Of a DNA stretch of 64,000 bases, positions 34,865 to 56,932 are shown in pieces. How positions within the stretch are numbered: position 1 is the stretch's first letter; the number at the start of each line of letters is the position of its first letter. The notes under the pieces are model-generated. The model did not search any database, had not been told where the DNA came from, and was given only the letters and a program-made list of their open reading frames with translations. The DNA is from an uncultured virus (IMG/VR IMGVR_UViG_3300010938_000026) (lineage: Duplodnaviria; Heunggongvirae; Uroviricota; Caudoviricetes). The translations under genes and the position numbers were made by a program. The stretch lies in the IMG/VR virus record IMGVR_UViG_3300010938_000026; one strand, 5' to 3'.

Positions 34865-35358
34865 TCACACATGCGATAGTACCCATCATTTTGGGCACCG
34901 ATCCGATAAAAGGTTTGTGTCAGCAGCACGGTATCAATCTATGGTGCCGTCTGCTGACCAAACCTTTTATTCGTTTTACGCCAGCTACTTTCGAGACGGG
35001 CATCTCCAAAGCACTAACACTACCCTTTGACCGCGCTCTCTTTTTCGTCACATTACCTGACTGGCAGAAACTGAAATCTATTACTGATGAGCTTTCTATC
35101 TACATCGACGGGCAATGCAATATTGCCGTATGGGAACGCATGCAGATGCCTGACGTAGAGGAATTGAACCTCAAGAAGGCACGAATCAGCATACTGGGTT
35201 TGTGCGACCCAAAACGCTATCTCAAACCGGTCTTTGAAAATGGCTACATAACTTTCATCCGTACTGACCCACTTCCATATTCTGGAGCCATTGCCTCAGA
35301 GCACACTGAGATTAAAGATCAAATTCTGGACCAGTTAAAGGAATGGAAAGACCGCTAA
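34750..35358 (+). CDS. Hypothetical protein
   Basis: 202-aa ORF ending the operon. Confidence 0.5.
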   Translation: MADLPDDSKLQGEIQDVRIINPADSKPQFREYRPDCILITHAIVPIILGTDPIKGLCQQHGINLWCRLLTKPFIRFTPATFETGISKALTLPFDRALFFVTLPDWQKLKSITDELSIYIDGQCNIAVWERMQMPDVEELNLKKARISILGLCDPKRYLKPVFENGYITFIRTDPLPYSGAIASEHTEIKDQILDQLKEWKDR

Positions 35359-35374
35359 ACTACAGTGCGTAGTT

Positions 35375-35383
35375 TGGCATAAT
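35375..35383 (+). promoter_or_regulatory. Putative extended -10 promoter
   Basis: TGgCATAAT in an intergenic gap before an AGGAGG-led gene. Confidence 0.4.
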
Positions 35384-35427
35384 CTCATGGCGGGCCGCTG
35401 GTGAGATCCATAGCGTAGGAGGATACT

Positions 35428-35961
35428 ATGTGCAGGATGGAAGGTGAGATAAAACTCTCATTCCTCGGGTCGATGCGCCTGTTGCAGTTCCTGAAGGACA
35501 AGCACCTTGTCAATCGTTACGGTTATCTGTGTAACCGCGGGGTGCCTGTCAGTCAGGATGATATGCCACATTATCGGACACGTGGCAGGAAACTGACCAT
35601 ACCTGATTTCGATTACCCCAGCGAGTTCTATGAACTTCTCAAAGAACTCAAATGGACCGGCTGGCTTATCGTATCACGGCCGGACGATGAGTGGATGGAC
35701 ATCTGGGTATCGAAATCCAGACAGCGCCTGAACACGCGGCATCTCTGGGATTGGATCCTGGAGACAAAGACCTATGTTCTGCATAGGTCTATCGAGACCG
35801 AGGAATATTCCATCGCGCGCGGGGCAGAGTTGGGGCACAACCTTGCTAAGATGTTGATCGTCCAGTGGCTGGTCCCACCTGTTGATGAGGAACAAGCAAC
35901 ACAAGAGATGAAGAATAGACGTGAGATCAGCAGCCGTCTCCAGCGGTTGCTGATACAATAA
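35428..35961 (+). CDS. Hypothetical protein
   Basis: Strong AGGAGG SD; 177 aa. Confidence 0.7.
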   Translation: MCRMEGEIKLSFLGSMRLLQFLKDKHLVNRYGYLCNRGVPVSQDDMPHYRTRGRKLTIPDFDYPSEFYELLKELKWTGWLIVSRPDDEWMDIWVSKSRQRLNTRHLWDWILETKTYVLHRSIETEEYSIARGAELGHNLAKMLIVQWLVPPVDEEQATQEMKNRREISSRLQRLLIQ

Positions 35962-35981
35962 CCATTGCTTCAGGGTGCCAC

Positions 35982-36040
35982 GCCGACAGCTGGCGGTTCA
36001 TGTGGTTGGGCCTGCCGTCCGTCAGCTGTCGGCTATTTTT
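35982..36040 (+). terminator. Intrinsic terminator-like hairpin
   Basis: GCCGACAGCTGGCGG / CCGTCAGCTGTCGGC 15-bp stem followed by TATTTTTT. Confidence 0.7.
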
Positions 36041-36053
36041 CTAGGAGGAGCGA

Positions 36054-37553
36054 ATGTTTCTGAAATACTTTAAGGCTGCATACCCGGTACTCGCGGTCGA
36101 GACCTTTGAAGAATGGCGCGTTGCCAGGACGATTCACGCCGAAGTGACAGAGTACATGTCCAAGAAGGAGAACAAAGGCCGGTGGGCCAATGTCTACTTC
36201 ATTGGCGTGCGCGGCGGCTTGTACGACCTGAACCGTAATCGGATCGTGGATGACTCCGCAAACTACGAACAGGTCTGGCAGATGGCTTCATCGTCGTCGA
36301 TGATCGTCATCGTGGCTGACTTCCGGCATTTGTGCGTTAGCCCGGCTCATTACCGGCCGCTGCTCAACGCTATTCCAGGGTTCAAGCGGTGCGGAAGCAC
36401 AATTGTCCTGGCTGGGCCAGTCTGGAAGCTGCCAGAAGAATTGCAGCATATCGCGCCGGTCATTGAGTATCCGCTACCTACACGGGAAGAGCTCAAGGCT
36501 GCGCTGCAGGTCATCGTCAGCAATGTGAATGCCAAGGCGACCAGTGCCTCGCAACGGCTGCCCGATCCGCTACCTAATGAACAAGAAATTCTTGATGCAG
36601 CGGCGGGCCTCACCATGGAAGAGGCCGAAAACGTCATCGCGCTGGCGCTGCGTCCAGATGGCATTGATCATCACGTGGTGCTGACCGAGAAGATGCGCCT
36701 TGTCCGGCAGACTACCGGCTTGAGCATCCTGCAACCTCAGCCACTTGAAGTCCTCGGTGGATTGAGCAACTTCAAGAAATGGCTCCAAGAGGAAGTGGTC
36801 CCGAATAAGCGCGATCTGGACCTGGCGGTTCGCGCTATGCTGTTCGTCGGACCTCCGGGCACTGGCAAGAGTCTTGCTGCACGTTGCCTGGCTAAAGCCC
36901 TCGAGTATCCGATCATCGGGCTGGACCTGGCCGCTTGTCGCGGACAGTACGTCGGTGCTACTGAGAGCAACGTACGTCGCGCCCTCCAGATGGCCGATGC
37001 CGTTGCCCCGTCCATCCTGCGTCTGGATGAAATTGACTCGGCGTTAGGCGGTTATGCTTCATCGGCGCATACCGACGGCGGCGTCACGTTAAACGTCCTG
37101 TCGATGCTTCAGACCTGGTTGCAGGACAACAAGAAGCCCATCGTCGTGGTTGGCACAGCGAACTACCCGGACCGGATTCCGCCAGCTCTCATGCGCGCCG
37201 GTCGTATGGATGCAATCTGGGTCTTTGATCTGCCGACCACAGAAGAACGACGCGAGATCGCGCGGATCCATTTGCGCCGATTCGTTGACAACAATCAGGC
37301 GGAGAAATTCGCGGAAGTTATCGCGAGTCTCACGGAGGGCTATACGGGCGCTGAAATCGAGGGTATCGTAAAGACGGCGGCCCGTGCCACGCAGCGCAAG
37401 TTGCGCCATGATGTCATTATGACAGCAGTAGGTACGATCGTGCCTCTGTCCCGGTCAAAGGCGGAGGAGATCAATAACATGCGGAAATGGGGAGAGAAGT
37501 TCGCTCGCTTCGCCAATGAAGAGGCTGCAGACGAGACAAAACGGCGCTTGTAA
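36054..37553 (+). CDS. AAA+ ATPase (Ycf46-like)
   Basis: YPVLAVETFEEWR N-terminus; LGGLSNFKKWL; Walker A GPPGTGKS; YVGATESN; RLDEID; TAN; PPALMRAGRMD. Confidence 0.9.
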   Translation: MFLKYFKAAYPVLAVETFEEWRVARTIHAEVTEYMSKKENKGRWANVYFIGVRGGLYDLNRNRIVDDSANYEQVWQMASSSSMIVIVADFRHLCVSPAHYRPLLNAIPGFKRCGSTIVLAGPVWKLPEELQHIAPVIEYPLPTREELKAALQVIVSNVNAKATSASQRLPDPLPNEQEILDAAAGLTMEEAENVIALALRPDGIDHHVVLTEKMRLVRQTTGLSILQPQPLEVLGGLSNFKKWLQEEVVPNKRDLDLAVRAMLFVGPPGTGKSLAARCLAKALEYPIIGLDLAACRGQYVGATESNVRRALQMADAVAPSILRLDEIDSALGGYASSAHTDGGVTLNVLSMLQTWLQDNKKPIVVVGTANYPDRIPPALMRAGRMDAIWVFDLPTTEERREIARIHLRRFVDNNQAEKFAEVIASLTEGYTGAEIEGIVKTAARATQRKLRHDVIMTAVGTIVPLSRSKAEEINNMRKWGEKFARFANEEAADETKRRL

Positions 37554-37566
37554 CCAAGGAGAAGGT

Positions 37567-38178
37567 ATGCAAACCAAGTTTTACTGCCCGCGGACATGTC
37601 CGCAGTATAACGAACCACAGTGCCGGTTCATGCCGGTCCTTGAGTGGTTCACGGACGAGATCGTCAACAGTGAGACCACGACCGTTCAGGTCAAATTCAA
37701 GCGGCTCGATGTGCTCCAGCGTGTGGTTGCCGAAATGAAAGGCACCCTCGAAATGGAAGAGAAAGAGCACACGGTATGGACCCGGCGCTTCAAAGGCCGT
37801 GCTATCCGTCTGCCTGGGTGGCAGCACCCCATTGTCTGGGATGGAAACCAGCTCATCTTCGACCATTACAACGGAAAATGGGGCAACCCCAAAGACATTG
37901 ATACCCTCATGGGTAAGTATGTCAAAGCAGCTGCCGCAGCCGTTGCTGATGAGCTTAGCTGGACCCGTCAGGTTAACGAGGACGGAACTGTCACCATCTA
38001 TCATCCGTCTGGCGGTGTGCTGACCGTATCTCCGAGCGGTATCGTTGATGCCACGGGATTCGTTGGCAACGCCTGCCACGACGCGGTTGGACAGATCACT
38101 GCTGCATTGGGTGACGTGACCCATCAGGGCCTCAAGTGCGAGGCTAACCTGCAGCAGAACATGCAGCAGAACCAATAA
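37567..38178 (+). CDS. DUF1257 (Ycf35)-like plus DUF2997-like fusion
   Basis: IFDHYNGKWG...EDGTVTI followed by VSPSGIVDATGFVGNACHDAVGQITAALG; usual partners of Ycf46-like ATPases. Confidence 0.6.
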   Translation: MQTKFYCPRTCPQYNEPQCRFMPVLEWFTDEIVNSETTTVQVKFKRLDVLQRVVAEMKGTLEMEEKEHTVWTRRFKGRAIRLPGWQHPIVWDGNQLIFDHYNGKWGNPKDIDTLMGKYVKAAAAAVADELSWTRQVNEDGTVTIYHPSGGVLTVSPSGIVDATGFVGNACHDAVGQITAALGDVTHQGLKCEANLQQNMQQNQ

Positions 38179-38194
38179 ACCATCGTTCCTCCGC

Positions 38195-38253
38195 GGGCGG
38201 TGCAAGGCCCTTTCTCCACCCCAAAACCTTGTGCTTTGCACCGCCCTTTTTTT
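38195..38253 (+). terminator. Intrinsic terminator
   Basis: GGGCGGTGCAAGGC / GCTTTGCACCGCCC stem plus T7. Confidence 0.8.
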
Positions 38254-38268
38254 CTATGAGGCTGAGTT

Positions 38269-38619
38269 ATGCCAGACAAACCATGGAAGCAGTTTGAACG
38301 GCGTATTGCCAGATTTTTCGGAGCAGTTCGGAACAGTCTAAGCGGGCGTAACAGCAAGGTCACGTCCGCGGATTGCATCCACGACCATTTATACATCGAA
38401 GCGAAATGGCGTGCATCGAGCGCCCTCTTCACGCTGTTTGAAAAGGTGAGGGAGGAGGCAAACAAAGAACGCAAACTGCCCGTTATCGCGCTGCATCGAA
38501 AGGGTCGTAAGTATGACCTGATTTGTTGTCGGGCAGAAGATCTGAAAATCATTGCACAGTACGTAAAGCCTGAAGTATTGAAGGAGGAGGAAAATGGCTC
38601 ACGAGATCACGGTCCGTGA
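38269..38619 (+). CDS. PD-(D/E)XK nuclease, Holliday junction resolvase-like
   Basis: WKQFERRIA...SADC...YIEAK...PVIALHR. Confidence 0.75.
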   Translation: MPDKPWKQFERRIARFFGAVRNSLSGRNSKVTSADCIHDHLYIEAKWRASSALFTLFEKVREEANKERKLPVIALHRKGRKYDLICCRAEDLKIIAQYVKPEVLKEEENGSRDHGP

Positions 38620-39628
38620 TGATGGTGTAGCAGAAGCTGCATACGCGCTGCAGCCGGCTTGGCATAAATTAGGCACGGTACTGGATCACCCAATGACCAG
38701 CGCGGAAGCCATTCAAGTCGCCCACCTTGATTGGACCATTAGCAAGCAATCTACATACATCCGTAGCAATGACGGCTGGCATGAAGTCCCGCAGTTCAAA
38801 TTCGTGATGCGGGATGACAACCATAAAGTGCTGGGCATTGTGTCGGACAATTACCAGCTCGTCCAGAACGTTGAGGCGTTCGCATTTCTCGATACCCTCG
38901 TCGAAGAGGGTCAGATACAATATGAGGCGGCCATGAGCCTCAAAGAGGGTCGTGTCGTGATTCTTCTGGCTCGCATGCCTGGTATTGATTACATCACGTC
39001 AGACGACCAGTTGAAACGCTACATCCTGCTGAGCCTGACTCACGATGGCACTGCCGCTATTAAGTTCGGGCCGACATCGGTGCGTGTGGTGTGCGCCAAT
39101 ACTTACGCACTGGCGCAACAAGAGGGCGCACTACGTGACGTGGCGGCGCGGACGATCTTGGATCGAGGTATTAGAGTCACGCACGTCGGGGATGTAAAAG
39201 CCAAGCTGCAAGCTGCTAAGGCCGCGATCGATCAGGCAAATATCCTGTTCGATCATTATGCCGATATTGCCAAACAGCTGGCGCAGAAGAAATGGACCGA
39301 CGAACAGTTCCAGCGGTTCTTGGATGTCATGTGCCCGGAATTGCAGCCGTATGACCCGGATTACACGGAGAAGCGGGCAAAAGCCATCCAAAACACGCGT
39401 GCAGAGATTCGGACTTTGTATTATAATGACGAGAAACAGCAGCTAGACGGCATTGAGCGGACCGCCTGGGCTGCTGTTTGTGCGGTGACCGAGCACATCG
39501 ACCATCTGCCACGCCGGGGAGCTACTTGGCGGCAGAAGGCCGAAGCACGATTCAACGTCTGTCTCTACGGCCCTGGCCGTGATATGAAACATCGGGCCTA
39601 CGAGGCAGCAATGCGAATTTCATGCTAA
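38594..39628 (+). CDS. DUF932-family phage/plasmid protein
   Basis: PAWHKLG, LDWTI, LGIVSDNYQLVQNVEAF, THDGT, TSVRVVCANT, TAWAAVCAVTEHIDH. Confidence 0.88.
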   Translation: MAHEITVRDDGVAEAAYALQPAWHKLGTVLDHPMTSAEAIQVAHLDWTISKQSTYIRSNDGWHEVPQFKFVMRDDNHKVLGIVSDNYQLVQNVEAFAFLDTLVEEGQIQYEAAMSLKEGRVVILLARMPGIDYITSDDQLKRYILLSLTHDGTAAIKFGPTSVRVVCANTYALAQQEGALRDVAARTILDRGIRVTHVGDVKAKLQAAKAAIDQANILFDHYADIAKQLAQKKWTDEQFQRFLDVMCPELQPYDPDYTEKRAKAIQNTRAEIRTLYYNDEKQQLDGIERTAWAAVCAVTEHIDHLPRRGATWRQKAEARFNVCLYGPGRDMKHRAYEAAMRISC

Positions 39629-39856
39629 GTCCGCTCCTGCGCAAGCCCGGGTGTGGCCATTGGTTACACTCGGGCCGGATTCATACCACCTTCCTTTCCA
39701 AGCTCGGGCGCTGGTGTAACAGCTAGCGCTCGAGCCGTCATCATTACGCTCCTGCGCAAGCCCGGGCGGTGGCGAAAGTCATCGCCCGGGCCGCAATTAT
39801 TGTCCGCTCCTGCGCAAGCCCGCGCTACGCTTCGGTGTAGCGCGGGTCTTTTTTTT
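39629..39856 (+). ncRNA. Tandem array of four ~58-nt leader+hairpin units (putative structured RNA)
   Basis: CGCTCCTGCGCAAG in units 1, 3 and 4 (CCTTCCTTTCCAAG in unit 2), then hairpins at 39646-674, 39703-734, 39761-790 and 39819-846 with G.U pairs, compensatory changes and GAAA/UUCG loops; the last is followed by a U-tract. Confidence 0.7.
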
Positions 39857-39938
39857 GTTCCGCAAAAGAAAATGACGATAGGGCAACGGAATTATTTGCG
39901 ACAGATTTCGATCATGTAGTGCTCGGAAGATCAGACAC

Positions 39939-40478
39939 ATGGCTCAGAATCAAAAACCGTTGATCCATACCGCTACGGTAAAAACGCCTCCTGATTACAG
40001 ACCTACGTGGCCGCAGCGTATATTTATCAGGGTACAAGACACGGAGCTATTCGTGGCCTCCGCGGGTGGCATGCCAGATTCTGCAGACGTAGCTGTGACC
40101 TCTAACGTACACGTACCTGTCCACTTTCGCCTGCGGGACATAGCGGCTTACAAGTACACGCGTAGTGAAACAAACAGCCGCGGACTTGTAGTATACCCAG
40201 GTTGCATAGCGGTAGAGAGTTATACCGGGCCACCAAAGTCCCCGTATAACAAAATCGAACTAGACGGCTACAATCGACGGATTTATTGCAATTACAAATC
40301 GAAAAATGAGATGCGCTTCGTGCAGATTGACTTACTGGCACGCTTTGGCCACGTAGCGATTCGGGATGAAGTAATGAACATGGCGTGCATCCCACCATCT
40401 CTTCTAAAGTTAGAGGCGTGGTCTTGCCGCACAAACGTAGAAGCTTACGAATTGTCTGGATGTAAGTTCCAAGACTGA
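39939..40478 (+). CDS. Hypothetical protein; outlying member of the [DN]T-motif family
   Basis: 179 aa; IFIRVQDTELFV. Confidence 0.6.
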   Translation: MAQNQKPLIHTATVKTPPDYRPTWPQRIFIRVQDTELFVASAGGMPDSADVAVTSNVHVPVHFRLRDIAAYKYTRSETNSRGLVVYPGCIAVESYTGPPKSPYNKIELDGYNRRIYCNYKSKNEMRFVQIDLLARFGHVAIRDEVMNMACIPPSLLKLEAWSCRTNVEAYELSGCKFQD

Positions 40479-40489
40479 AAGGAGACTGA

Positions 40490-40813
40490 ATGAAGCAAAT
40501 AAGTATTTACAAGGATTTTAATCCCGTGATTAAAATCGAGGCCGAATCGATGGAGTGGTTACTTGATTGCTTGGTCTGTCTAGGAAAGGCCGCTCGGGAC
40601 GACTTCTTAAACGGCTTGTCCTTTACAGGCCGGAACGGTGTCCTTTATCAGCTCAAGCGGCTAAAACCCAGTGAAGCCAAGCAACTCGGGTCACCTCATG
40701 CTAAGTGGGCTATTGAATCATTTGAGGGATCAATGTTGGAGACGAGGCATTTGTACAAGACACGTAACAGGGCTATGAATGCGTTTTGCGCATTCGCGGG
40801 GGAACTTGCTTAG
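40490..40813 (+). CDS. Hypothetical protein
   Basis: AAAGGAG SD; 107 aa. Confidence 0.7.
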   Translation: MKQISIYKDFNPVIKIEAESMEWLLDCLVCLGKAARDDFLNGLSFTGRNGVLYQLKRLKPSEAKQLGSPHAKWAIESFEGSMLETRHLYKTRNRAMNAFCAFAGELA

Positions 40814-40825
40814 AAAGGAGCACTA

Positions 40826-41572
40826 ATGTTAGCGACACACTTGACTTTTAATTACAGGCGTGATCGCATGCTGAGCGTGGATGAACTGCAAAACGTAGCG
40901 CAACGCCTCTTCAACACAGCGCAGTGCGCGGCGAAGGATCAGACATATCTAATCAATCTTGCATACTCCGCATGGGGCGAGCGAGGGATAATCGGTCGGT
41001 TTGCCAGTTACAAGCAGCCGGAGACAGGCGAAGTGGCCACCTGCTACCAGGTGCAGCAGGTAGGATTAAAGAAGGAGGACGGCCAGCTTTACAAAAAACG
41101 TACGTCCAAAGTGGGCATGGACCTCCAAGAAGGGATGGATCAGTACCTGGACCGTGCACGGGCGTTCATGCAGCAAGTCCGGAATCCGGATGACGTCCGT
41201 CTCTGTACGGTGGCACTGAAATGGCAATTTCCTATTGAGCAATTCAACGTCATCAAGGAAATGGCGACCCGGTTACCCGCGCCCAGCGAAGCTTCAAACT
41301 TGCAGATTTATTCAAGTATAGGAGCGCTCGTGTTTTGGAAATGCGACACTGAAGGTAATCCGCTGGCCTCAAGCCCTGAGTCTTGGGTAGTTCATTCAAT
41401 GTATGTAGGGGGTCACGGATACCACCAATCCTTCTCGACACTCAAAGAGGCACTTGAGTTCGTGCAGCCGCACTTGCATGCGTGGGACAAGGAATGCGAT
41501 GACCACGTGATCGCATCTGTTCGTGAATTCGTGGAAGCGAGGCTCCAAAAAGCGAAAAAGGTTCAACGATGA
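40826..41572 (+). CDS. Hypothetical protein (paralog of the next gene)
   Basis: AAAGGAG SD; NPL...SWVVHS...FSTLKEALEFVQPHL. Confidence 0.7.
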   Translation: MLATHLTFNYRRDRMLSVDELQNVAQRLFNTAQCAAKDQTYLINLAYSAWGERGIIGRFASYKQPETGEVATCYQVQQVGLKKEDGQLYKKRTSKVGMDLQEGMDQYLDRARAFMQQVRNPDDVRLCTVALKWQFPIEQFNVIKEMATRLPAPSEASNLQIYSSIGALVFWKCDTEGNPLASSPESWVVHSMYVGGHGYHQSFSTLKEALEFVQPHLHAWDKECDDHVIASVREFVEARLQKAKKVQR

Positions 41573-42255
41573 CCTGGAACTTCCACGCTGTACTTAAACT
41601 CCAGCGATCGGCGGAAACTCCGCTATTGGAAATTCAGCAGGTAGCTGAACGTGGTCGAGAATTGCTCCAACAAGTTCTCACCACGGGCCCATCTTGGTGT
41701 ATCATCACATGTCACCGCGGCTGCGCCTTCGTCGGGCAGATAAATGTCATGTATACACGGTCCGGCGATCAGCAAATCAGGGTAGTCAGCTCGCATACCT
41801 TGAAGATGTACTCAGCCGATGACGTTACCCATGAAGAAACAGCTACTGTAGATAGCTTCTCTCAGGATGAGGGTCGCTCCGGCTGGCAGGAATTCTGGAT
41901 GTATACAGGTTACGATGTCAAGAAGCATCCATGCCGGACGGCTCCATACCTGTATACGATTGAGCTGGTCGCAGATATCCCGGCCGATCAAGTGTCAAAG
42001 CTTAAGGAATTCATCGAGGGTATACACAATGCCCAAAGAGAATCCAAGCTTACCTTAAAGACACGCGCTATTGAAATCAACATCTATTTACCTCGCTTCT
42101 GGCGGAATCCACTTGGCAAAGATGACACTTCATGGGTAGTAGAGTCTCAGATTTACCTTGAGCCACGTGAGCGGCACGTCAAGACGTTTGACCGCCTCAA
42201 AGACGCATTTGCGTTTGTTTATCCGCATCTTCTTCCGCCGTCGGAAGCAAATTAA
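41569..42255 (+). CDS. Hypothetical protein (paralog of the previous gene)
   Basis: NPL...SWVVES...FDRLKDAFAFVYPHL. Confidence 0.7.
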   Translation: MTWNFHAVLKLQRSAETPLLEIQQVAERGRELLQQVLTTGPSWCIITCHRGCAFVGQINVMYTRSGDQQIRVVSSHTLKMYSADDVTHEETATVDSFSQDEGRSGWQEFWMYTGYDVKKHPCRTAPYLYTIELVADIPADQVSKLKEFIEGIHNAQRESKLTLKTRAIEINIYLPRFWRNPLGKDDTSWVVESQIYLEPRERHVKTFDRLKDAFAFVYPHLLPPSEAN

Positions 42256-42290
42256 ACACAGGACACGTGAAGGTCCAACAGCTGACTTCA

Positions 42291-42338
42291 CTCCCGCGCA
42301 AGCCCGCGCTACGCTTCGGCGTAGCGCGGGTATTTTTT
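42291..42338 (+). terminator. Solo copy of array unit 4 acting as an intrinsic terminator
   Basis: CTCCCGCGCAAG-CCCGCGCTACGC-TTCG-GCGTAGCGCGGG-TATTTTTT. Confidence 0.8.
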
Positions 42339-42358
42339 ATGTCAAAAAAGGAGAGTCA

Positions 42359-43099
42359 ATGAACGCTGTCGACGCATTGAATTCTATAACGCTCGCTAAT
42401 GTGTCCAAATCGGCATTTGGCGGCATTCAAGCCGATATTGTCGCCTTTAATGATGTATCTGTTCATTTAGAAAAATCACTCAAAGTGCACGTTGCATCAA
42501 ATGTGCCTATGTACAAGGATAAGTCATACGCGGGTAGAATTAAATTGCTGCTTCCATTATCGGGCGTAAATATTCGTAAATTAGACAAATCGAGCTATTT
42601 AATCGAATCTGGCCCGTATAATCTCTTCGGGGTTGTTGTGAAGACAGGTAATTTCTGGCCAAAAAGCTTCGTCGTAAACACTGTAAAACTGAATGGGCCA
42701 GCGCAGTCTGATCCGTTGGGTAAAGATACTTATGGTTTGATTCTAACCAAAGATGATCACATTTGTGTGCGATGGGGGCATCGGTATATACCAAGACCCG
42801 ACAGGCTACCCGGGTCTCGGCTGGACTATAAGCTTCGTCAGGGTGAGTGTAACATCGATTTGGCTGGGAGAGTCATTGTGACAATCCACAACGACCTCGA
42901 CTTTGGGTGTGCAAACGACGAACTCGACGTTGGGTGTGCAAAGGCAGCTGCAGGGTGTGTGATGGCAATGCTAGCCCTGATTTTGATAGCGATACTGTTC
43001 GTTGTTGTGCTAGGGATAATTGCTGGGGCCATAACCGGATTCAAAGAGGCGCTGGCATTTACCGGCCCAAGCATTTCCGCAGTCGGAAGCCTGATCTAG
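42359..43099 (+). CDS. Hypothetical protein with C-terminal membrane anchor
   Basis: AAAAGGAG SD before ATG 42359; long hydrophobic stretch MAMLALILIAILFVVVLGIIAGAI. Confidence 0.7.
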   Translation: MNAVDALNSITLANVSKSAFGGIQADIVAFNDVSVHLEKSLKVHVASNVPMYKDKSYAGRIKLLLPLSGVNIRKLDKSSYLIESGPYNLFGVVVKTGNFWPKSFVVNTVKLNGPAQSDPLGKDTYGLILTKDDHICVRWGHRYIPRPDRLPGSRLDYKLRQGECNIDLAGRVIVTIHNDLDFGCANDELDVGCAKAAAGCVMAMLALILIAILFVVVLGIIAGAITGFKEALAFTGPSISAVGSLI

Positions 43100-43123
43100 T
43101 TAATTGAACTTTCGGAGGTCCGA

Positions 43124-43894
43124 ATGCTAAGTCGTGGTAACGACAAACTGGGACGTAGTATCTACCATTGGAGCATTCCCGCCATTACTACATGCCCTGG
43201 TGCAACGGAGGCATGTAAAGCCCTCTGTTACGCATCCAAGGGGCGCTTTCGCGCGCCAGCGTCCAAAAACAACATGGCTCGCAATTACAGGCTCAGCAAA
43301 TCCAGATACTTCGCAGAGGCCATGATCTGCGCAATCCAGGCCATGCGCCATCCCATCATACGTATCCATGTGGCCGGGGACTTCTATGACCGATCCTACA
43401 TCAAGAAATGGCTCCGCATCGTTAAAGAATGTCCTCACGCCACATTCTTTGCCTATACCCGTAGCTGGAGACGACCAGAGCTCCTGCCGCTCCTCCTACG
43501 CCTTGGCTCACTGCCGAACATGCGTCTGTGGTTCTCCGCAGACCGGCTCGGCGGTGAGCCACCCCGGTTGGGGTTACCCATCGCATACATGAGCATCGAT
43601 GATAACGACATTCCACCCTGGCCAGTTAATCTGGTATTCCGGGTACAACGTAAAACTCAGCAGAAATTCATGAATGGATACCTGGTATGCCCGGTAGAAC
43701 AGGGCATCAACCGCCAGACGCATATCACCTGCACGAAATGCCAGCTTTGTTTCCAGCGGCTCAACCACCCACACCTCCAAAAGGAGGGTGCCGGTCTTAT
43801 ATATAAGGAAGCCTGTTCCCGGCCAAGTTCCAATCCAAAGGTGGGGAACTGGCGGAGATGTACCCCTAACGTAACGACCCCAGAAGAGGTGTGA
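43124..43894 (+). CDS. GP88-family phage protein (Cys-cluster, radical-SAM-like)
   Basis: GNDKLG...TCPGATEAC...CYA; IRIHVAGDFY; AYTR; C-terminal CP...CTKCQLC. Confidence 0.8.
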   Translation: MLSRGNDKLGRSIYHWSIPAITTCPGATEACKALCYASKGRFRAPASKNNMARNYRLSKSRYFAEAMICAIQAMRHPIIRIHVAGDFYDRSYIKKWLRIVKECPHATFFAYTRSWRRPELLPLLLRLGSLPNMRLWFSADRLGGEPPRLGLPIAYMSIDDNDIPPWPVNLVFRVQRKTQQKFMNGYLVCPVEQGINRQTHITCTKCQLCFQRLNHPHLQKEGAGLIYKEACSRPSSNPKVGNWRRCTPNVTTPEEV

Positions 43895-43982
43895 ATTCTT
43901 ATATATAAGAGCACAGTCAATACGTAAAATCTGTCTCCAAATGGGGTATGGCCTGTTAAGTTAACAGAGCAAGGGAGGCGTT

Positions 43983-44885
43983 ATGAGCCCGCGCTTGTAT
44001 GGAACCTTTATCTTCCGGCTGAAGAACCAGGCTAGCATTGATGTGCTGTATAAATACATGAAGACGTCAGCGGACGACTCCGGGCACGTTCCGGTAGCTC
44101 TGCGACATTATGTTTTAGATATCCAAGAAGACGAGCTTAAAGTCAAACTGAAGACCAAGACCACAAAAGACGGAATCGTTTGCACACTGCCTACAGGCGA
44201 AAAAATCAAGCTGCCCAAGAAACTCTTTCCTCTACGTGTCGTCAGCGGTACAATTTATCACACTGCAGATGGTTACAAGATCAAAATCCTTTACGCAATT
44301 CGCACTAAAGCCCGTGTTTTAGACCCTGAGAAGATCGTTGGAATTGACCTTGGTGTACATAAGATCGTTACTTCTGAACCTGAGACCTATAAGTTTCCGA
44401 AGCGTTTGTTGAAGACCTTAGAGAAGCGTGATCTTGAAAGTAAAGACGTTAAGCGACAGTTAACTGCGTTCTACACTCAAGTTGTTGTAAAGCTTTGTAA
44501 AACCTACGATTACATCGCTGTAGAGAAGTTCAATCCGCATTTTCAACCGATCGCTGGTACCGAATTGTTCTACGAAGTTCTGAAGCGTCAAACACAAAAA
44601 TACGGTAAACAAGCTGTTTTCGTAAATCCTAAGAACACTTCAAAATTCTGCGCTACGTGTAACGTGAAGCTGAAACCAAAGAATGCGGACTTGCAGTACT
44701 GCCCCAAATGCAAGAAAGCCGTTAACCGTGATGTCAATGCAGCCACAAACGTCAAAAACCTTGCACTTCGGCGTTCTGACTCGGCCGGTTTTGTTGGGAC
44801 TTTGCCGGCACCTGACCATCCACCATGTGGTACGGGTAAATTAAATGTTGCAGGGGATCCTTTCGAGAACCAAGGAACCTGGTGA
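43983..44885 (+). CDS. tnpB: TnpB-family (IS200/IS605 OrfB-like) RuvC nuclease, compact, with no tnpA
   Basis: RuvC-I VGIDLG; RuvC-II IAVE; VNPKNTSKFCATC...CPKC zinc finger; RuvC-III NRDVNAATN; GGGAGG SD. Confidence 0.88.
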   Translation: MSPRLYGTFIFRLKNQASIDVLYKYMKTSADDSGHVPVALRHYVLDIQEDELKVKLKTKTTKDGIVCTLPTGEKIKLPKKLFPLRVVSGTIYHTADGYKIKILYAIRTKARVLDPEKIVGIDLGVHKIVTSEPETYKFPKRLLKTLEKRDLESKDVKRQLTAFYTQVVVKLCKTYDYIAVEKFNPHFQPIAGTELFYEVLKRQTQKYGKQAVFVNPKNTSKFCATCNVKLKPKNADLQYCPKCKKAVNRDVNAATNVKNLALRRSDSAGFVGTLPAPDHPPCGTGKLNVAGDPFENQGTW

Positions 44886-44945
44886 GGAAGGGTGGGCCGT
44901 AGGCAACGATGCCCAAATCGAGCCAGAATCCCGCTTAAAGGTGAC
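44780..44945 (+). ncRNA. Candidate omega/reRNA scaffold overlapping the tnpB 3' end
   Basis: Several GC-rich stem-loops (GCCGG..CCGGC, CCAC..GTGG, CAGG..CCTG, GGGC..GCCC) where TnpB RNAs usually lie; boundaries are guesses. Confidence 0.35.
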
Positions 44946-45000
44946 ACATCGGCAGAAGACAAAAAAGGTAATTTAAGGCATAAAAATTAGTTCTCTGTAC

Positions 45001-45276
45001 CCCTGCCCAACCTCTTAGGGAGTAAAAAACTTAAGGGGACCGGGCAGTTTTCATCTTTTGAATAAAACTTTAATCGCAAGATTAAAATTTTACTACGACA
45101 CAAATAGCCGCCAGTACCCATGATGACAGTGAAAACTAACCAAGAATCCAAACATGATGACAGTGAAAACTAACCAAGAATCTAAACCCTGCCCAACCTC
45201 TTAGGGAGTAAAAAACTTAAGGGGACCGGGCAGTTTTCATCTTTTGAATAAAACTTTAATCGCAAGATTAAAATTT
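45001..45276 (+). repeat. Two identical 90-bp direct repeats (45001-45090, 45187-45276) enclosing a 34-bp tandem repeat (45119-45186)
   Basis: CCCTGCCCAACCTCTTAGGG...GATTAAAATTT twice, 186 bp apart; CATGATGACAGTGAAAACTAACCAAGAATCYAAA twice. Confidence 0.92.
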
Positions 45277-45366
45277 GACCTGAACACACACGATAGTCGC
45301 CAGCACTCCTCCAACCAGTAAAAAACTAGAAAAGAACCCCAACCCTAACGTACACCTCTCTAGATC

Positions 45367-45417
45367 GGCTTGAGCCAGCTCCTGATACAGAACGCTGGCT
45401 CAAGCCAACTTTTTTTT
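45367..45417 (+). terminator. Intrinsic terminator
   Basis: GGCTTGAGCCAGC / GCTGGCTCAAGCC 13-bp stem plus T8. Confidence 0.85.
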
Positions 45418-45446
45418 ACCAACCATAAAGACAGGAGATTGCCAGA

Positions 45447-46019
45447 ATGTACATCAAAAACAAAAAAGCCCACATCAGCACCAGTACGGTCAGCCCAAAA
45501 TTCATACATATAAAATTCAAGCACACTAAACTGATACTCACAGAAGAGGCACCATACGGGTCAATGCTGGAAGCAGAATACGTCACCAAAAAGGTTAGCG
45601 ATAAATACGTCCCGAAATTGCTGGTCATGACTCATAACGAAAATAACGTAGCCATGACATACGAAAACGCACATGAAATCCTGGACCTGATGATCGAAGA
45701 CCAACGGGAATATGAAGAGGACGAGTCCGCAACCAGATTGAAAATCGAAAAGAACGACTATCTGAACAACGAACACAAAACACTAACACTAAAATACGAT
45801 TGCGCCATTGCTGACCTGCGTAAAGGTAAAATAAACCTGAGAGTCTTGATCACAATGCCAACAATGCGAAGCGGATTACTGGTCGATAAACGCCTGTCTA
45901 AAGACCTGAGAAACTCACACATCGACCTGGATCAATTCACCGTAAGCCCGGAACTACAGCCAGATATCAGGGCCATCGAACGGAATTTAATCACGGGATT
46001 AAAATCCAAAATTCGATAA
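45447..46019 (+). CDS. Tandem-array protein 1 (beta-rich, unknown function)
   Basis: AGGAG SD; 190 aa; IHIKFKHTKLIL. Confidence 0.7.
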   Translation: MYIKNKKAHISTSTVSPKFIHIKFKHTKLILTEEAPYGSMLEAEYVTKKVSDKYVPKLLVMTHNENNVAMTYENAHEILDLMIEDQREYEEDESATRLKIEKNDYLNNEHKTLTLKYDCAIADLRKGKINLRVLITMPTMRSGLLVDKRLSKDLRNSHIDLDQFTVSPELQPDIRAIERNLITGLKSKIR

Positions 46020-46038
46020 ACAGGAAGACAAGAAACTT

Positions 46039-46650
46039 ATGCGCTTAGACAACAGCAAGAAAGGGTTTTGCCTGACCACAACAACAGAACCCAGGACGCT
46101 AAAACTCGAATCCAAAACGACCGACTGCATCATAACCGCGATAGCGGGACGAGAATACATCGAGGCTACCTTCAAAACTCCACAAATCCGCGATACATAC
46201 GTCCCACAATTTAAGACCATAACCGAAGGACGCGTCCGGCAATATGCTGCGTGCTACATTAACGTCAATAAAATCCTGGAAGCAAATCGATTGGCTTATA
46301 ACGACGTGCTCCTTCAAACAAGTAATTACCTGAAAAAGCGGCACATTCTGGTAACTCACCATCAAAACACGATCAGCATTAAAATGTTCGTCGATAACAC
46401 AAGCAAATGCGCGGACATCGCCCTAAAAAATAAAATCGAAATCCGAATCAAGATCAGTAAGTCCGTACGCGACAGCGAAATAATCTTGGGTGAACACAGA
46501 CTCGTCTATAACACCACATCAATACCGAAAACTACCCCATCCCGGAATTTAATCACAGGATTAAAATCCAGCCAGCACGACTCAAATGCAGGAGAACACT
46601 GCTATGATCATTGCAATAGTCGAACCTCCAGAAGGCTACCGCCAGATTGA
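46039..46650 (+). CDS. Tandem-array protein 2
   Basis: 203 aa; LKLESKTTDCII. Confidence 0.6.
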   Translation: MRLDNSKKGFCLTTTTEPRTLKLESKTTDCIITAIAGREYIEATFKTPQIRDTYVPQFKTITEGRVRQYAACYINVNKILEANRLAYNDVLLQTSNYLKKRHILVTHHQNTISIKMFVDNTSKCADIALKNKIEIRIKISKSVRDSEIILGEHRLVYNTTSIPKTTPSRNLITGLKSSQHDSNAGEHCYDHCNSRTSRRLPPD

Positions 46651-47119
46651 AGAAAAATTCGCGCTGTACGTCTACGACGACTCGTACTACATGCAAATCA
46701 AACTCGCTAACGCCGACCTCATAATCCAGGTTCCTGAAGGATGCAAGAAATTCGTGACCGATGTACGTTACGCCCGGCGCTATACCAGCCAGTGGAGAAT
46801 AAACTGGTACGCTGACGCCACCCACGGTGAACTATGTAACGCCAGTAAACACTGCGAACATAACCTGAAGTGGAAGGTTGAAGACATAATCTATGACGAA
46901 TTCACGCTCCAGCGCGAAGACGCAGATGGTACCCAGTTCATACACGCAATGCGGGACCAGTCACCGCTCATCACTACCAAGGTGCATACACGGGAAGGTC
47001 ACCAGACACTGGGATTGGAATTGGGCCAGAATAACCTCATCATGTACACACCGGATATACAAATCCTGCCCCTGACCCTGTCAGTCCCGGAAAACACCTG
47101 CAAGAAAAAAAGGAAATAA
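46586..47119 (+). CDS. Tandem-array protein 3
   Basis: About 170 aa; MQIKLANADLII. Confidence 0.6.
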   Translation: MQENTAMIIAIVEPPEGYRQIEEKFALYVYDDSYYMQIKLANADLIIQVPEGCKKFVTDVRYARRYTSQWRINWYADATHGELCNASKHCEHNLKWKVEDIIYDEFTLQREDADGTQFIHAMRDQSPLITTKVHTREGHQTLGLELGQNNLIMYTPDIQILPLTLSVPENTCKKKRK

Positions 47120-47120
47120 C

Positions 47121-47693
47121 ATGCTCATAAGAAAAGATGGCTTCACGATATTGCACAATAACCCTACATACCTGGTCATAAACCTGAAAAATACCACAGT
47201 ATACCTCAGCATAGAACCAAACGAAGCAGTGCTCCGCTGCAAATACGAAACCTCGAATACAGGCATAAAAGACCTGTCGGACTTTGCCCTGTCCCTGCGA
47301 CTTGCACGACTGCACTCGAGCGGGACCAGCCTGTCATGCATGTTCACGACCAGATACGTCTACGCCCAGATGTCCCCGTTCCTCATCAGCATATCCAGCC
47401 ACGACTACCTGAAAAGGCGATACAAATGGCTGGATATGCAGAACTCCTACGTCAAGATCACGCGGCGAAATCGGGAACAAGAAGAAATGGTCCTAGTCGA
47501 TCTGGCTAAAGAGGGAATAGTCCGGGTAGCCCGGAAACTGTCCATCGTACAACACGACCGGGCAATCGTCCCGCTGTCCGCAGAGTCTACCCGATACCAG
47601 ACACAGGTCACCCTGCCCGAAACTGATAAGCGCAAACGCCTGACCCTGCCAAAGACGCTCTGCCAGAAAACAGAGCTTGACATTTACGGCTAA
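47121..47693 (+). CDS. Tandem-array protein 4
   Basis: 190 aa; LVINLKNTTVYL. Confidence 0.65.
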   Translation: MLIRKDGFTILHNNPTYLVINLKNTTVYLSIEPNEAVLRCKYETSNTGIKDLSDFALSLRLARLHSSGTSLSCMFTTRYVYAQMSPFLISISSHDYLKRRYKWLDMQNSYVKITRRNREQEEMVLVDLAKEGIVRVARKLSIVQHDRAIVPLSAESTRYQTQVTLPETDKRKRLTLPKTLCQKTELDIYG

Positions 47694-47886
47694 TCCTGCC
47701 GTATCCAGACGACCATCTTAAAACCTTATTCGAATGGAGTACCACCATGCACCTCCGTACCGAAAACTTCCGCTTGAAGGTAGGCGAAACAGGTATCGAA
47801 TGCCCGCTACATTTAGACATAAACCCCTAGCCGACCAGTGGCCCAACACACCAGCAAACCTGACCACAAAAGGAGGTTAACAGGCA

Positions 47887-48357
47887 ATGCAAATAGATGC
47901 TGGAAAAGTCCTGCTGATAGCAGATGTCCTCGGCGTATTCACGTTGCGCGTTGCCAATACCGAACTCCACATAGATGCCAGAGACGGATCGGAAGATACA
48001 CAGCTTATCTACCGAAACTCGATGGCACGAAATCCCTCGTCCATTTGCTTTGGTTTCACCATCAGTGACGCTCAATATTACGAACCCGACTGTGTAAACC
48101 ACCGCCGGCGTCTCATGGTCGAGGACCAGGGAAATACCATAACGTGCCGCAGCGAGGATTACATGGCGCGCCGGCTAACAGAAATATGCTTGGGGCCGGA
48201 CGCGATCAAATGTGCATTCAAATCGGACCGAGGGATTACAGCGTTTCGCCTGTCTTTAGACCATGATCACGTGACCGTCGAAGTGAAACAGAAATTCCAC
48301 CATGTCCATCACACAAAGCAGTTCCTGACTGCACTGAAAAACCGGGCGAAATCTTAA
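47887..48357 (+). CDS. Tandem-array protein 5
   Basis: AAGGAGGT SD; 156 aa; FTLRVANTELHI. Confidence 0.7.
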   Translation: MQIDAGKVLLIADVLGVFTLRVANTELHIDARDGSEDTQLIYRNSMARNPSSICFGFTISDAQYYEPDCVNHRRRLMVEDQGNTITCRSEDYMARRLTEICLGPDAIKCAFKSDRGITAFRLSLDHDHVTVEVKQKFHHVHHTKQFLTALKNRAKS

Positions 48358-48399
48358 TCCTGTGATTAAAATTGTCCTCTAAACCAAGGAGAAAATGCC

Positions 48400-48936
48400 G
48401 TGCAGTTAAAACATGGTAAAACCGAACTGAACCTGCACTGGATAGGTGCCATGAGTATTGCTGTCAAAAATACTGAGACACTCCTGGCCTTCGGTAAACA
48501 TGTACACCGGATAGAAGTCAAATACAATACGCGAGCGACATGCGACCGGTACGTCCCGCATGCTACCTTCAACTACGCGAAATCACCCTACGAATTCTTC
48601 ATTTGCCTGAACCCCTGGAGAAAAATTACCGTGGACCTAAACATGGACAATCACGGCAACACAATTATCATAGCCGTCGACTACAGCAAAGACCGGGTCG
48701 CTGAACTGACTCTCACCGGCCGGGGTATATTCGCCCGGCTGCAGAAAGGAAATCTCCAGAAAGAATGTATCCTTCATGTCAGAAGTGATCCCGAGGCGCT
48801 GGATGTGTGTAAAGAGCAAATCAGAATTGTTCGCGAGCAGCCGTATACCCTCAAGCGCTGGCGGCCAAATATCCCGCTCCGCCCGCGCCTGACAGATATC
48901 CCGGTGGTAGATGTCGCACCGGAAGGCAAGCTATAA
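48400..48936 (+). CDS. Tandem-array protein 6
   Basis: AAGGAG SD with GTG start; MSIAVKNTETLL. Confidence 0.65.
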   Translation: MQLKHGKTELNLHWIGAMSIAVKNTETLLAFGKHVHRIEVKYNTRATCDRYVPHATFNYAKSPYEFFICLNPWRKITVDLNMDNHGNTIIIAVDYSKDRVAELTLTGRGIFARLQKGNLQKECILHVRSDPEALDVCKEQIRIVREQPYTLKRWRPNIPLRPRLTDIPVVDVAPEGKL

Positions 48937-48937
48937 C

Positions 48938-49459
48938 ATGAAACCTACAAAGAAGTCGTTCCGCCGGGTTTACACTACCGATAGCGGACCACTGGTTCGC
49001 TACGATCATTTCATATTTCGTCATGAACCTGGAAGAGAATATTCACTGACCATACTCCTTCGAGATACAAATTTTGGCATAGATGTCTACATAGCATCAG
49101 CCCTGGAGCACGTAGCCGTCGCCTGTAATACTGATTGTCTGCCCCGGAAATGTTTCTGGGCCCTTAACGAACTGGCACATGACCATGAAGTATATGCGGG
49201 AACCTCCCGTAATCTGTTCGTCGTCCACCCGCCCGGTTCCGTCCTCCGGATCAGACGCCTATCCGGACATAAGAAAATACGACTTCACGGTACAAGATAT
49301 GCGCGCACTGTGCGGGTCTGGGCCAGCGATGCCAGCGAATTTGCGCGCGCCTGCATTAAAATCCTTTCCCCGTCACGTATTACCGCGTCTTATTCACGTT
49401 GCGTCAGGGCAAAACGCGTGTCCATTCAAACCCGACCCAGAAAAGGAGTTTTCAAATGA
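48938..49459 (+). CDS. Tandem-array protein 7
   Basis: LTILLRDTNFGI. Confidence 0.6.
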   Translation: MKPTKKSFRRVYTTDSGPLVRYDHFIFRHEPGREYSLTILLRDTNFGIDVYIASALEHVAVACNTDCLPRKCFWALNELAHDHEVYAGTSRNLFVVHPPGSVLRIRRLSGHKKIRLHGTRYARTVRVWASDASEFARACIKILSPSRITASYSRCVRAKRVSIQTRPRKGVFK

Positions 49460-49989
49460 TTTACTGGCGCCTTCCGCCGGAGCCACGTGATCCGTCTCCA
49501 TACGCAAGCAGCGCTGTCTCCATAGAATACTATACCCGGCTGCAATATGAGCTGTATGTCAGAGTCCGCGATACGCTGGTGTCAGTAAAACGTAACCGTG
49601 ATCTGAATTATGAACAGGTTCACTGTATGCGTGGCAAGTCAGCCAGCGATAGAAAAATTGACTATGACCTGCGAACAGGCAGGGACTTAGCGGAGTTAAC
49701 ATGCAAAGGTGACGAGATAGGTCGCAATAGTTACGTTAACATGTGTTCCGTACACAAAGAAAAATGCACCGGTCGGATGCGTTCCCTGATCGTTTACAGG
49801 CAATGCTGTGCTATTGATTGCTGTGTTGCGCAGCGCGATTGCAAGCGGTTAATTTATCTCACATTTGGCCCGACCAGGTTGACGATAAGCGGGGCCATCT
49901 TCAGTTTCTTGTTCTGGCAGCCGTCGCTACTGGTCAGCGAGGGCGAAATCGATATCGACGGCTATGTTTACCCGTTGAAAGCCCGGTAG
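49456..49989 (+). CDS. Tandem-array protein 8
   Basis: AAAAGGAG SD; ATGA coupling; LYVRVRDTLVSV. Confidence 0.65.
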   Translation: MIYWRLPPEPRDPSPYASSAVSIEYYTRLQYELYVRVRDTLVSVKRNRDLNYEQVHCMRGKSASDRKIDYDLRTGRDLAELTCKGDEIGRNSYVNMCSVHKEKCTGRMRSLIVYRQCCAIDCCVAQRDCKRLIYLTFGPTRLTISGAIFSFLFWQPSLLVSEGEIDIDGYVYPLKAR

Positions 49990-49999
49990 GGAAGAACCT

Positions 50000-50521
50000 A
50001 TGCCAGCACTTAAGCTCCCAATATGTCTACCAGGATTTGAAAACTGTGTCCGTTACGATTACACAACACTCCCCACACCTTATGCTGCCGTATGCGCTCA
50101 TAGTACTACGATAGAAATCGGGTCCTTACACGGCACAGTCGTACCCTTTGCCCTGCGCTATATCAGTTACTTACGTGACCGTACCCAGGGATTCCTGTAT
50201 TTCGCAGGACCTACATCCGTCACCGTGGCGCATGACTATTCGTCCAGGCACCTGGACTACTTTTATTTCCTGCCCCGCGAATTTACGTGCGAGTCCAGGT
50301 CAAAAACCAGGAAATGCTCCATTCGAGTCAATCCGTTCTCACGCTTGATACGATACCGAGTCAGTGACCGGTGCCTGGATGTGTCTATCTGGATTTCGAG
50401 TCTTGGGGTATGGATACGTCACCGCGAAGGATCGAATCGGGAAGATATGTCCTGCCCTAACCATATACACATGCCAGCGCTTTCAATCAGAACGGCAAAT
50501 TGCCGTAGGAGGAAATTATGA
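50000..50521 (+). CDS. Tandem-array protein 9
   Basis: 173 aa; AAVCAHSTTIEI. Confidence 0.6.
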   Translation: MPALKLPICLPGFENCVRYDYTTLPTPYAAVCAHSTTIEIGSLHGTVVPFALRYISYLRDRTQGFLYFAGPTSVTVAHDYSSRHLDYFYFLPREFTCESRSKTRKCSIRVNPFSRLIRYRVSDRCLDVSIWISSLGVWIRHREGSNREDMSCPNHIHMPALSIRTANCRRRKL

Positions 50522-51093
50522 GCACTGCATGTACTGATGCGACCAAATTGGGAAGAAGCGTAACAATTCAAAAGTCGAAGTCCATTTCGGTGGTCTCCGA
50601 GGACACTGAGTTTTACATCGATCTTGTGTCCCGCCGTCTATCTATTCGCTGGCACATCGATCCTTCACACGCGGAAACGCTCTACATGATTTATGGATAT
50701 GAAGCAGACGGCTACTTGGCGGGCCGCGTCTATGTGAGCGGTAAGAATTTGTTCCTATCTTGTAATTCGGCGTTGACGAGTGTCGAGAGCTATCTTGGAC
50801 CGTTAGGCATCGGGTTCGAGCAAGCCTATGGTGAACACTATCTAGATAGCATTAACTGGCATGTCCGTCAACAAGATATGGAGTACAACACCAAACTTGA
50901 GTTTACCCCGTGGGTTTCACTGCGGCGCAGCATTCGTCGCGTTAAGAAAGATGAGCGCGGGGCAAAGCAACCTGATGGCGGCCAGTTTGATGAATGGTGG
51001 TTGAGTCCCTCATTTCCCGAGGACAAGTATGAGTGCTTCCGTGAAGTTCAACAAAGACCCGCAGTCGACGAATCGGGTAACGATAACGATTGA
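50518..51093 (+). CDS. Tandem-array protein 10
   Basis: AGGAGG SD; ISVVSEDTEFYI. Confidence 0.65.
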   Translation: MSTACTDATKLGRSVTIQKSKSISVVSEDTEFYIDLVSRRLSIRWHIDPSHAETLYMIYGYEADGYLAGRVYVSGKNLFLSCNSALTSVESYLGPLGIGFEQAYGEHYLDSINWHVRQQDMEYNTKLEFTPWVSLRRSIRRVKKDERGAKQPDGGQFDEWWLSPSFPEDKYECFREVQQRPAVDESGNDND

Positions 51094-53582: not shown

Positions 53583-53612
53583 GCAATGTCCCTTTCCTAA
53601 TCCGAGGAGTCT

Positions 53613-54703: not shown

Positions 54704-54736
54704 GTCGCGCCTGTTGGACTGGGGAAGGAATTCGCG

Positions 54737-55216: not shown

Positions 55217-55220
55217 TAGT

Positions 55221-56910: not shown

Positions 56911-56932
56911 GTAACCTCGGAAAGGGCTACAA

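Follow-up and report, generated by a model that had tools for sequence, protein, structure and literature searches.

A tandem array of four 57-58-nt units (positions 39629-39857, + strand), each composed of a leader followed by a 13-14-bp GC-rich hairpin, lies directly behind a DUF932-family gene of a large uncultured tailed phage. The array represents a genuine RNA structure that has been selected on one strand and is specific to the lineage of this phage. In design it is an expanded form of the phage's own terminators, in which unit 4 and a solitary fifth unit located elsewhere represent a terminal type and units 1-3 an internal type. We propose that the array serves as a 3' mRNA cap and termination barrier, in which three duplicated non-terminating hairpins are joined to a terminator, and we assign this reading a probability of about one half. 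All positions are numbered along the window, the 64-kb stretch of phage DNA that was analysed.

Nearly all genes in the window are located on the + strand, and they encode a large terminase, a sigma-like factor, two helicases, a primase, a family A polymerase, a UvsX-like recombinase and an AAA ATPase. The array is positioned inside the replication/recombination gene block (helicases, primase, polymerase and recombinase), and all of the genes that neighbour it are on the + strand. Specifically, it sits in a 310-nt gap between the DUF932 gene (38594-39628, +; PF06067, E = 1.4e-46), whose TAA stop codon occupies 39626-39628 and is followed at the next base by unit 1, and an ORFan gene (39939-40478, +), for which a search of the ESM Atlas returned no usable match. 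Several other features of the window were recorded. In the sigma-like phage protein (6200-6946, +) only regions 3 and 4 are recognisable, and its promoter specificity could bear on the operons located behind the terminators. A short (300 aa) TnpB-like ORF (43983-44885, +) contains a Cas12f1-like TNB domain (E = 1.2e-13); its match to the NCBIfam guided_TnpB family lies below the cut-off, no tnpA was seen, and the 560-nt gene-free, A-rich, low-GC stretch on its 3' side (44886-45446) could be the site of its guide RNA. This stretch is followed by approximately 17 head-to-tail ORFs of 156-203 aa (45447-59712, +) that lack family matches, share 7-29% identity with the first among them, and may represent either an array of strongly diverged paralogues or simply a block of small ORFans. 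At 44-50 kb an unusual, negative GC skew and a strong positive AT skew are seen.

The first C of the hairpins is located at 39646, 39703, 39761 and 39819 (spacings of 57, 58 and 58 nt), as the earlier note on this DNA had reported. Unit 1 (39629-39685, +) carries the leader CGCTCCTGCGCAAG at 39632-39645 and a 14-bp stem-loop at 39645-39675 (-25.4 kcal/mol) that is closed by an ATT loop and followed by CCG and an A/T-rich tail without a T run. Units 2 (39686-39743, +) and 3 (39744-39801, +) have the same construction, as each contains a 14-bp stem-loop (39702-39735, loop GTAACA, -27.3 kcal/mol; and 39760-39791, loop GAAA, -31.5 kcal/mol, respectively) followed by CCG and a tail that lacks a T run; the leader of unit 3 is exact, while that of unit 2 is pyrimidine-rich and degenerate, retaining TCCT...CAAG. 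Unit 4 (39802-39857, +) combines an exact leader with a 13-bp stem-loop at 39818-39847, a C(UUCG)G loop and a run of eight T residues (39849-39856), and its sequence marks it as a predicted canonical intrinsic terminator. The description given previously holds for the leader, which is exact in front of units 1, 3 and 4 (its 15-mer occurs in three exact copies) and whose CAAG is also kept in unit 2, for the GAAA and C(UUCG)G loops, and for the confinement of the T run to unit 4 within the four-unit array. The A/T-rich segment that follows the CCG of units 1-3 is 9-11 nt long. The one correction concerns the stems, whose compensated pairing stands: they are 13-14 bp long, one pair more than the 12-13 bp noted. 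All units have the same orientation, and the direct repeats among them occur as three exact copies of 14-21 bp. The conserved block extends 4 nt into the 5' arm of the hairpin, whereas the rest of the stem varies. A mini-hairpin that the leader could form (CGC-TCCT-GCG) is absent from units 2 and 5.

The array folds far better as + strand RNA than shuffled sequences do. The + strand RNA of 39620-39870 has a folding energy of -130.9 kcal/mol as compared to a shuffle mean of -91 kcal/mol (z = -8.99, with 0 of 200 shuffles as good), whereas the - strand RNA of the array reaches -105 kcal/mol (z = -2.59, with 3 of 200 shuffles as good); scored singly, the hairpins range from -25 to -31.5 kcal/mol. 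In an alignment of the five units all 70 stem cells pair, and 7 of the 14 pairs are changed on both sides, covariation here being that between paralogous units of one genome. Neither the observed pairing nor the covariation score was reached by any of 500 shuffles, sliding the partner by 1-3 columns as a control lowered pairing to 34-41%, and RNAalifold independently predicted the same 14-pair helix. The 68 pairs counted, which are those of units 1-5 only, comprise 57 Watson-Crick and 11 G.U pairs and not a single A.C pair. Because of these G.U and A.C counts and the asymmetry of folding between the strands, the + strand RNA is the form that has been selected, and the compensatory changes bear out what had previously been suggested, namely selection on + strand RNA structure. 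In units 1-3 the 5' arm is a single sequence in variant forms, and each difference is compensated in the 3' arm; these matched differences indicate that units 1-3 are diverged duplicates that have been kept paired by compensatory change.

The array is not the only place in the window at which this module occurs. A hairpin scan combined with a mismatch search revealed a fifth unit at 42286-42340 (+), overlooked previously, that is solitary and nearly identical to unit 4: its leader, CACTCCCGCGCAAG, differs at two positions, its stem matches that of unit 4 except that one G.U has become G-C, and it ends in a T run. It lies between a gene that ends at 42255 and an ATG at 42359. Two looser members of the family, both intergenic and likewise overlooked, are located at 38181-38255 (+), where a leader with TTCCTCCGCG precedes a 14-bp stem (38195-38208/38233-38246) with a 24-nt loop and a 7-T run, and at 62287-62340 (+), where a TCCTGCG leader precedes a 10-bp GC stem and a 7-T run. 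A covariance model built from the five units was run unfiltered over the whole window. It returned units 1-5 at 54.9-64.9 bits (64.9, 54.9, 63.7, 64.8 and 60.0 bits for units 1 to 5, respectively) and nothing else above 21 bits, and its next full-length + strand matches were the two looser members (38181-38250, 13.7 bits; 62287-62337, 11.0 bits).

These copies connect the array to the terminators of the phage. A GC hairpin followed directly by a U run, the hallmark of an intrinsic terminator, is found in unit 4, in unit 5 and at 38181-38255 and 62287-62340, whereas in units 1-3 the hairpins are followed by CCG and mixed A/T. The 64-kb window holds four strong + strand terminators (38.2, 39.85, 42.3 and 62.3 kb); the terminator scan of the 64 kb showed no further strong one on this strand, the one at 38.2 kb having escaped it because of its 24-nt loop. 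All four have a TCCYSCG-type motif just upstream. The motif TCC[TC][GC]CG occurs 20 times on the + strand of the window, as compared to 14.6 occurrences expected, and is found directly upstream of six of the seven family hairpins. Thus, the units belong to a small phage-specific family of terminator modules that consist of a pyrimidine-rich leader and a GC-rich hairpin. The earlier note had raised the scenario that units 1-3 are terminator remnants left by gene deletions, of which the kinship with terminators holds but the decay does not, as these units have been kept paired. A perfect 16-bp GC-rich hairpin (-30.2 kcal/mol) is also present at 16061-16098, flanked by the convergent terminase gene (- strand) on one side and the next + strand gene on the other; it lacks the leader motif and probably acts as a terminator in both directions. 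At 38.2 and 42.3 kb the T run is followed by the next ATG after only 15 and 20 nt, respectively (38247-38271; 42333-42361), and both of these gaps contain a Shine-Dalgarno sequence and leave no room for a promoter. A scan of 35000-46000 detected no sigma-70-like + strand promoter in or after the units. Because the gaps are short and promoterless, the genes downstream of 38.2 and 42.3 kb seem to need read-through.

Relatives of approximately 90% identity in which the array is kept are present in three metagenome DNA runs (X1, X2 and X3); none of the runs listed as containing the stretch is registered as RNA. An X2 contig that spans 39612-39866 contains 13 differences in 255 nt, while six listed coding pieces of X2 contain 287 differences in 2378 positions (Fisher p = 3.9e-4 for the comparison with the array), so that in X2 the array diverges about half as much as its coding flanks. 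The deletions that X2 carries in the array remove 2 nt from the loop of unit 2 and 1 nt at a G.U position of unit 3. In X1, the tail of unit 2 is joined straight to the leader of unit 4, which shows that unit 3 has been lost; the number of units is thus variable among relatives. In X3, one contig crosses the whole array without indels and another covers unit 5, and the segment 39861-40501, which holds the ORFan gene at 39939, has given way to 58 other letters; the left breakpoint falls immediately behind the T run of unit 4. As this gene swap begins at the end of the T run, the 3' edge of the array is a recombination breakpoint, and the ORFan (39939-40478) appears to behave like a swappable cassette. 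The array also happens to be open in the frame of the DUF932 gene (39629-39919, +), where 96 sense codons follow the TAA before a stop at 39917-39919. A search with this 96-residue frame identified no protein homologues (it gave four candidates, none of which scored), and we do not regard it as coding, because the 2-nt and 1-nt deletions in X2, 64 nt apart, would shift the frame between them; the open frame is probably an effect of GC content and not a read-through extension.

Beyond these relatives the design was not recovered in the collections searched. GenBank phages contain no DNA match to 38594-40478, and their proteins are at most about 31% identical to the DUF932, polymerase and AAA proteins. 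In IMG/VR, the exact 18-mer of the leader yielded one chance match inside an unrelated stretch, single-protein searches with the DUF932, 39939 ORF and AAA ATPase sequences yielded no relatives, and a gapped leader-stem pattern matched at least 120 loci, among which the unit design was found in none of the 25 most stably folded. A 16-mer pattern applied to JGI and ENA metagenome contigs matched at least 120 loci. These were ranked by fold energy together with the IMG/VR locus of the 18-mer (L001), and the best 40 of the 121 looked like chance matches in high-GC DNA; among the matches listed, no locus had more than one. DUF932 proteins of 45-60% identity are encoded on other viral contigs and in bins of Pirellulales and other Planctomycetota, which gives a weak hint, drawn from protein similarity, that the host may be a member of the Planctomycetota. 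An alignment search with the DUF932 protein led to 87 loci (80 viral and 7 genomic), and the array was absent from all 17 of the closest, in which the gene is followed by 0-2 ordinary hairpins. The best match of the covariance model in two genomes of the candidate host order had an E value of 0.29, and in 151 genomes of that order it produced a single match of 41.7 bits. This match is located in a genome of the Pirellulales-type order (locus L332, 1501-1552; genome G018, contig C389) after an ORF of 491 residues, and reads CGCTCC...GCAA followed by a CCCGCG stem and a T run. It is an ordinary terminator, and we judge its resemblance to the module to be at chance level because 151 genomes hold many terminators.

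In the mechanism that we propose, the + strand transcript of the DUF932 gene would carry the array as its structured 3' end. RNA polymerase would pass units 1-3, which lack a U tract, and would release the transcript at unit 4, where the hairpin is followed by U8, so that the finished RNA would end in four consecutive hairpins of -25 to -31 kcal/mol. We infer a stabilising role for these hairpins: they would block 3'-to-5' exonucleases in cis, with the inner hairpins acting as fallback barriers, and they would probably also serve as pause or back-up structures that tighten the operon boundary. The units may have arisen by unequal recombination between the 14-21-nt leaders, and the same repeats would act as breakpoints for gene swaps. 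A passive cap leaves unexplained why an identical 14-nt leader is present in units 1, 3 and 4 while the stems diverged, why three extra hairpins are present here and not at the other terminators, and why the T runs at 38.2 and 42.3 kb are spaced only 15 and 20 nt from the ATG.

The conservation of the leader, together with the short spacing between T run and ATG, keeps termination controlled by a factor viable. In a form that we regard as possible though doubtful, the leader and the foot of the stem would be bound by a protein, of phage or host origin, that switches the terminators on or off in a nut-, RAT- or Nun-like manner, and the array would steepen the switch. In a more general form, which we entertain equally tentatively, the 14-nt leader plus any stable hairpin would be a module read by a putative RNA-binding factor of the phage or its host that controls termination or read-through at all operon boundaries of the phage; the four-unit array might then be a high-avidity platform or sponge for the factor, and the phage would possess a new transcription-control system in which the leader is read by sequence and the stem by structure only. 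Such control would account for a leader that is identical in units 1, 3 and 4 and a conservation that stops 4 nt into the 5' arm of an otherwise variable stem, as well as for the motif common to all four strong + strand terminators and for the genes behind two of them that seem to need read-through; that the phage encodes its own sigma-like factor is in keeping with it. However, none of the 59 ORFs scanned was recognised as encoding a protein of the N, Q or RAT-binding type, the loops, which differ in all units, make a loop-reading protein unlikely, the leader of unit 2 is degenerate, and units 1-3, being devoid of a U tract, offer nothing to regulate.

The remaining explanations place the function of the array in trans, in the DNA, or nowhere. 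We think it improbable that processing of the transcript yields ~58-nt units with a function in trans as guides, sponges or decoys. The regular 57-58-nt period, the presence of one conserved and one variable single-stranded part in each unit, the retention of the array in relatives with better conservation than the flanking genes, and the TnpB-like gene 4 kb downstream are compatible with such processing, but no Nop/Tas, Cas or other guide-binding protein adjoins the array, loops of 3-6 nt are too short for the dual spacers of a stem-loop tigRNA, and the same module is also used on its own as a plain terminator. As regards anti-SD or antisense action, no stretch of 10 nt or more that is complementary to the linkers occurs in the 64-kb window, in which only 8-9-mers at chance level were found, and Rfam returned no match at gathering thresholds in the whole window, the best sub-threshold match being tpke11 (22 bits versus a gathering score of 43; E = 0.12). 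There is similarly little to recommend the idea that the array is a neutral by-product, in which a terminator was copied by slippage or unequal recombination at a module boundary and the extra hairpins are functionless. The variation in unit number between relatives, the coincidence of the array edge with a gene-swap breakpoint and the absence of the array from the 17 closest DUF932 loci of other elements could all be reconciled with neutrality, but not so readily the compensation of every stem difference among units 1-3, the restriction of non-Watson-Crick pairs to G.U on one strand, or the lower divergence of the array than of neighbouring coding DNA in X2. Least of all do we credit a DNA-level element, in which the direct 21-bp repeats and hairpins would be iterons, single-strand initiation signals of an origin or another protein-binding DNA site. 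Its location in the replication/recombination gene block and the three exact direct repeats of 14-21 bp, behind which the sequence becomes richer in A/T, would suit such an element, whereas the G.U versus A.C asymmetry and the strand-specific fold speak for RNA, and the members of the family are T-run terminators between + strand genes. Since single-stranded DNA would tolerate G.T as well, the DNA reading is weakened rather than refuted.

Comparison with known systems separates the array from the guide RNAs with which it had been associated. A TIGR array is accompanied by a Nop-domain Tas gene, and each of its units contains two 8-12-nt spacers that are flanked by box D and box C and that are enclosed by a stem in stem-loop arrays (PMC12045711; bioRxiv 10.64898/2026.09.09.750476). 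The phage array resembles the TIGR-Tas stem-loop arrays in that it is arranged in tandem, occurs in a phage, has palindromic stems of variable sequence and ends in a terminator, and it differs from them in lacking a Nop-domain gene and stem-enclosed pairs of 14-nt box D-spacer-box C intervals and in having loops of only 3-6 nt (PMC12045711; bioRxiv 10.64898/2026.09.09.750476). Because its loops are this short, the stems cannot enclose two such intervals. A TIGRFinder-type pattern of 14-nt intervals occurs four times per strand in 39600-39900, without a regular pair in each unit. No Nop domain was detected by Pfam among the 59 ORFs of the window, all neighbours included, or by NCBIfam in 10 neighbours. 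The 'IS110/Nop-like gene at 19630' to which the earlier note had pointed in support of a TIGR-like guide array lies 20 kb from the array and is an ORF without a sequence match in Pfam, NCBIfam, PHROG or the PDB. With neither a Nop/Tas protein nor dual spacers, an Rfam family or an antisense target found, the suggestion of a TIGR-like array fails, and membership in TIGR-Tas is rejected on the missing Nop gene, the 3-6-nt loops, the irregular intervals and the lack of a family for the 19630 ORF. CRISPR arrays consist of identical 23-47-nt repeats and unique, non-palindromic spacers, accompanied by cas genes or by a match to a host repeat. A CRISPR array or solitary-repeat RNA was likewise rejected, as the conserved part here measures 14-21 nt and the variable part is itself a palindrome; apart from the TnpB-like ORF 4 kb away, no cas genes were found. 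The array does not open a new class of guide RNAs.

Other comparisons concern systems that act on the transcript in which they lie. Lambda-type nut sites combine boxA with a boxB hairpin whose conserved loop is read by the N protein. The array shares with nut a short conserved single-stranded box located a few nt upstream of a hairpin in a phage transcript, and it differs in its 13-14-bp hairpins, in the tandem arrangement of four of them, in the fact that some hairpins are terminators, and in its loops, which are not conserved and thereby speak against a site of the boxB type; among the 59 window ORFs scanned, none was recognised as N-like. The likeness to intrinsic and tandem terminators lies in units 4 and 5, which consist of a hairpin and U run with a UUCG loop. 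C(UUCG)G and GNRA hairpins are very stable and occur in phage intercistronic regions, and the GAAA loop of unit 3 is in line with this. Unlike intrinsic terminators, units 1-3 lack a U run, and all units share a sequence-specific leader, which ordinary terminators can do without.

Further comparisons are with dispersed palindromic elements. The REP/BIME clusters of enterobacteria are tandem extragenic palindromes that form stable stem-loops in the 3' regions of mRNAs. The phage array resembles them in its tandem, GC-rich, imperfect palindromes with G.U pairs, its intercistronic or 3' position and its conserved linkers, and by analogy its expected role would be that of an exonuclease barrier. 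It differs in that its units are all direct, whereas REP clusters alternate in orientation; in that the family has 7 members in 64 kb of phage, whereas REPs are high-copy and dispersed in the host chromosome; in that no repeat family was found in 2 + 151 genomes of the candidate host order; and in that the linker is conserved and the stems are variable, the reverse of REPs. A review links REP stem-loops to the decay of structured RNA. In the PeSL (promoter-early stem-loop) elements of T4-type phages, a sigma-70-like promoter and a Shine-Dalgarno sequence come after the stem-loop, and the array resembles these elements in being a repeated, dispersed intergenic regulatory cassette with a stem-loop, located at breakpoints of indels and gene replacements between close relatives (PMC4122927). 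Such breakpoints are seen here in the loss of unit 3 in X1 and in the replacement of 39861-40501 in X3. Unlike in PeSL, no promoter was found in or after the units of the array, its conserved part lies upstream of the hairpin, and a T run or CCG follows the hairpin. Being all-direct, low-copy and promoterless, the array is neither a REP/BIME cluster nor a PeSL. It shows instead how transcripts are punctuated in a phage without cultured relatives, by one reusable leader-plus-hairpin module that is used singly as a terminator or expanded in tandem, and that is a hotspot of unit loss and gene replacement. If the leader is read by a factor, the module would represent a new system of termination control in a phage lineage that is poorly known and whose host may be a member of the Planctomycetota; if it is not, the array would offer a clean natural case of duplicated RNA hairpins evolving by compensatory change, and its family would constitute REP- or PeSL-like elements outside the enterobacterial and T4 worlds.
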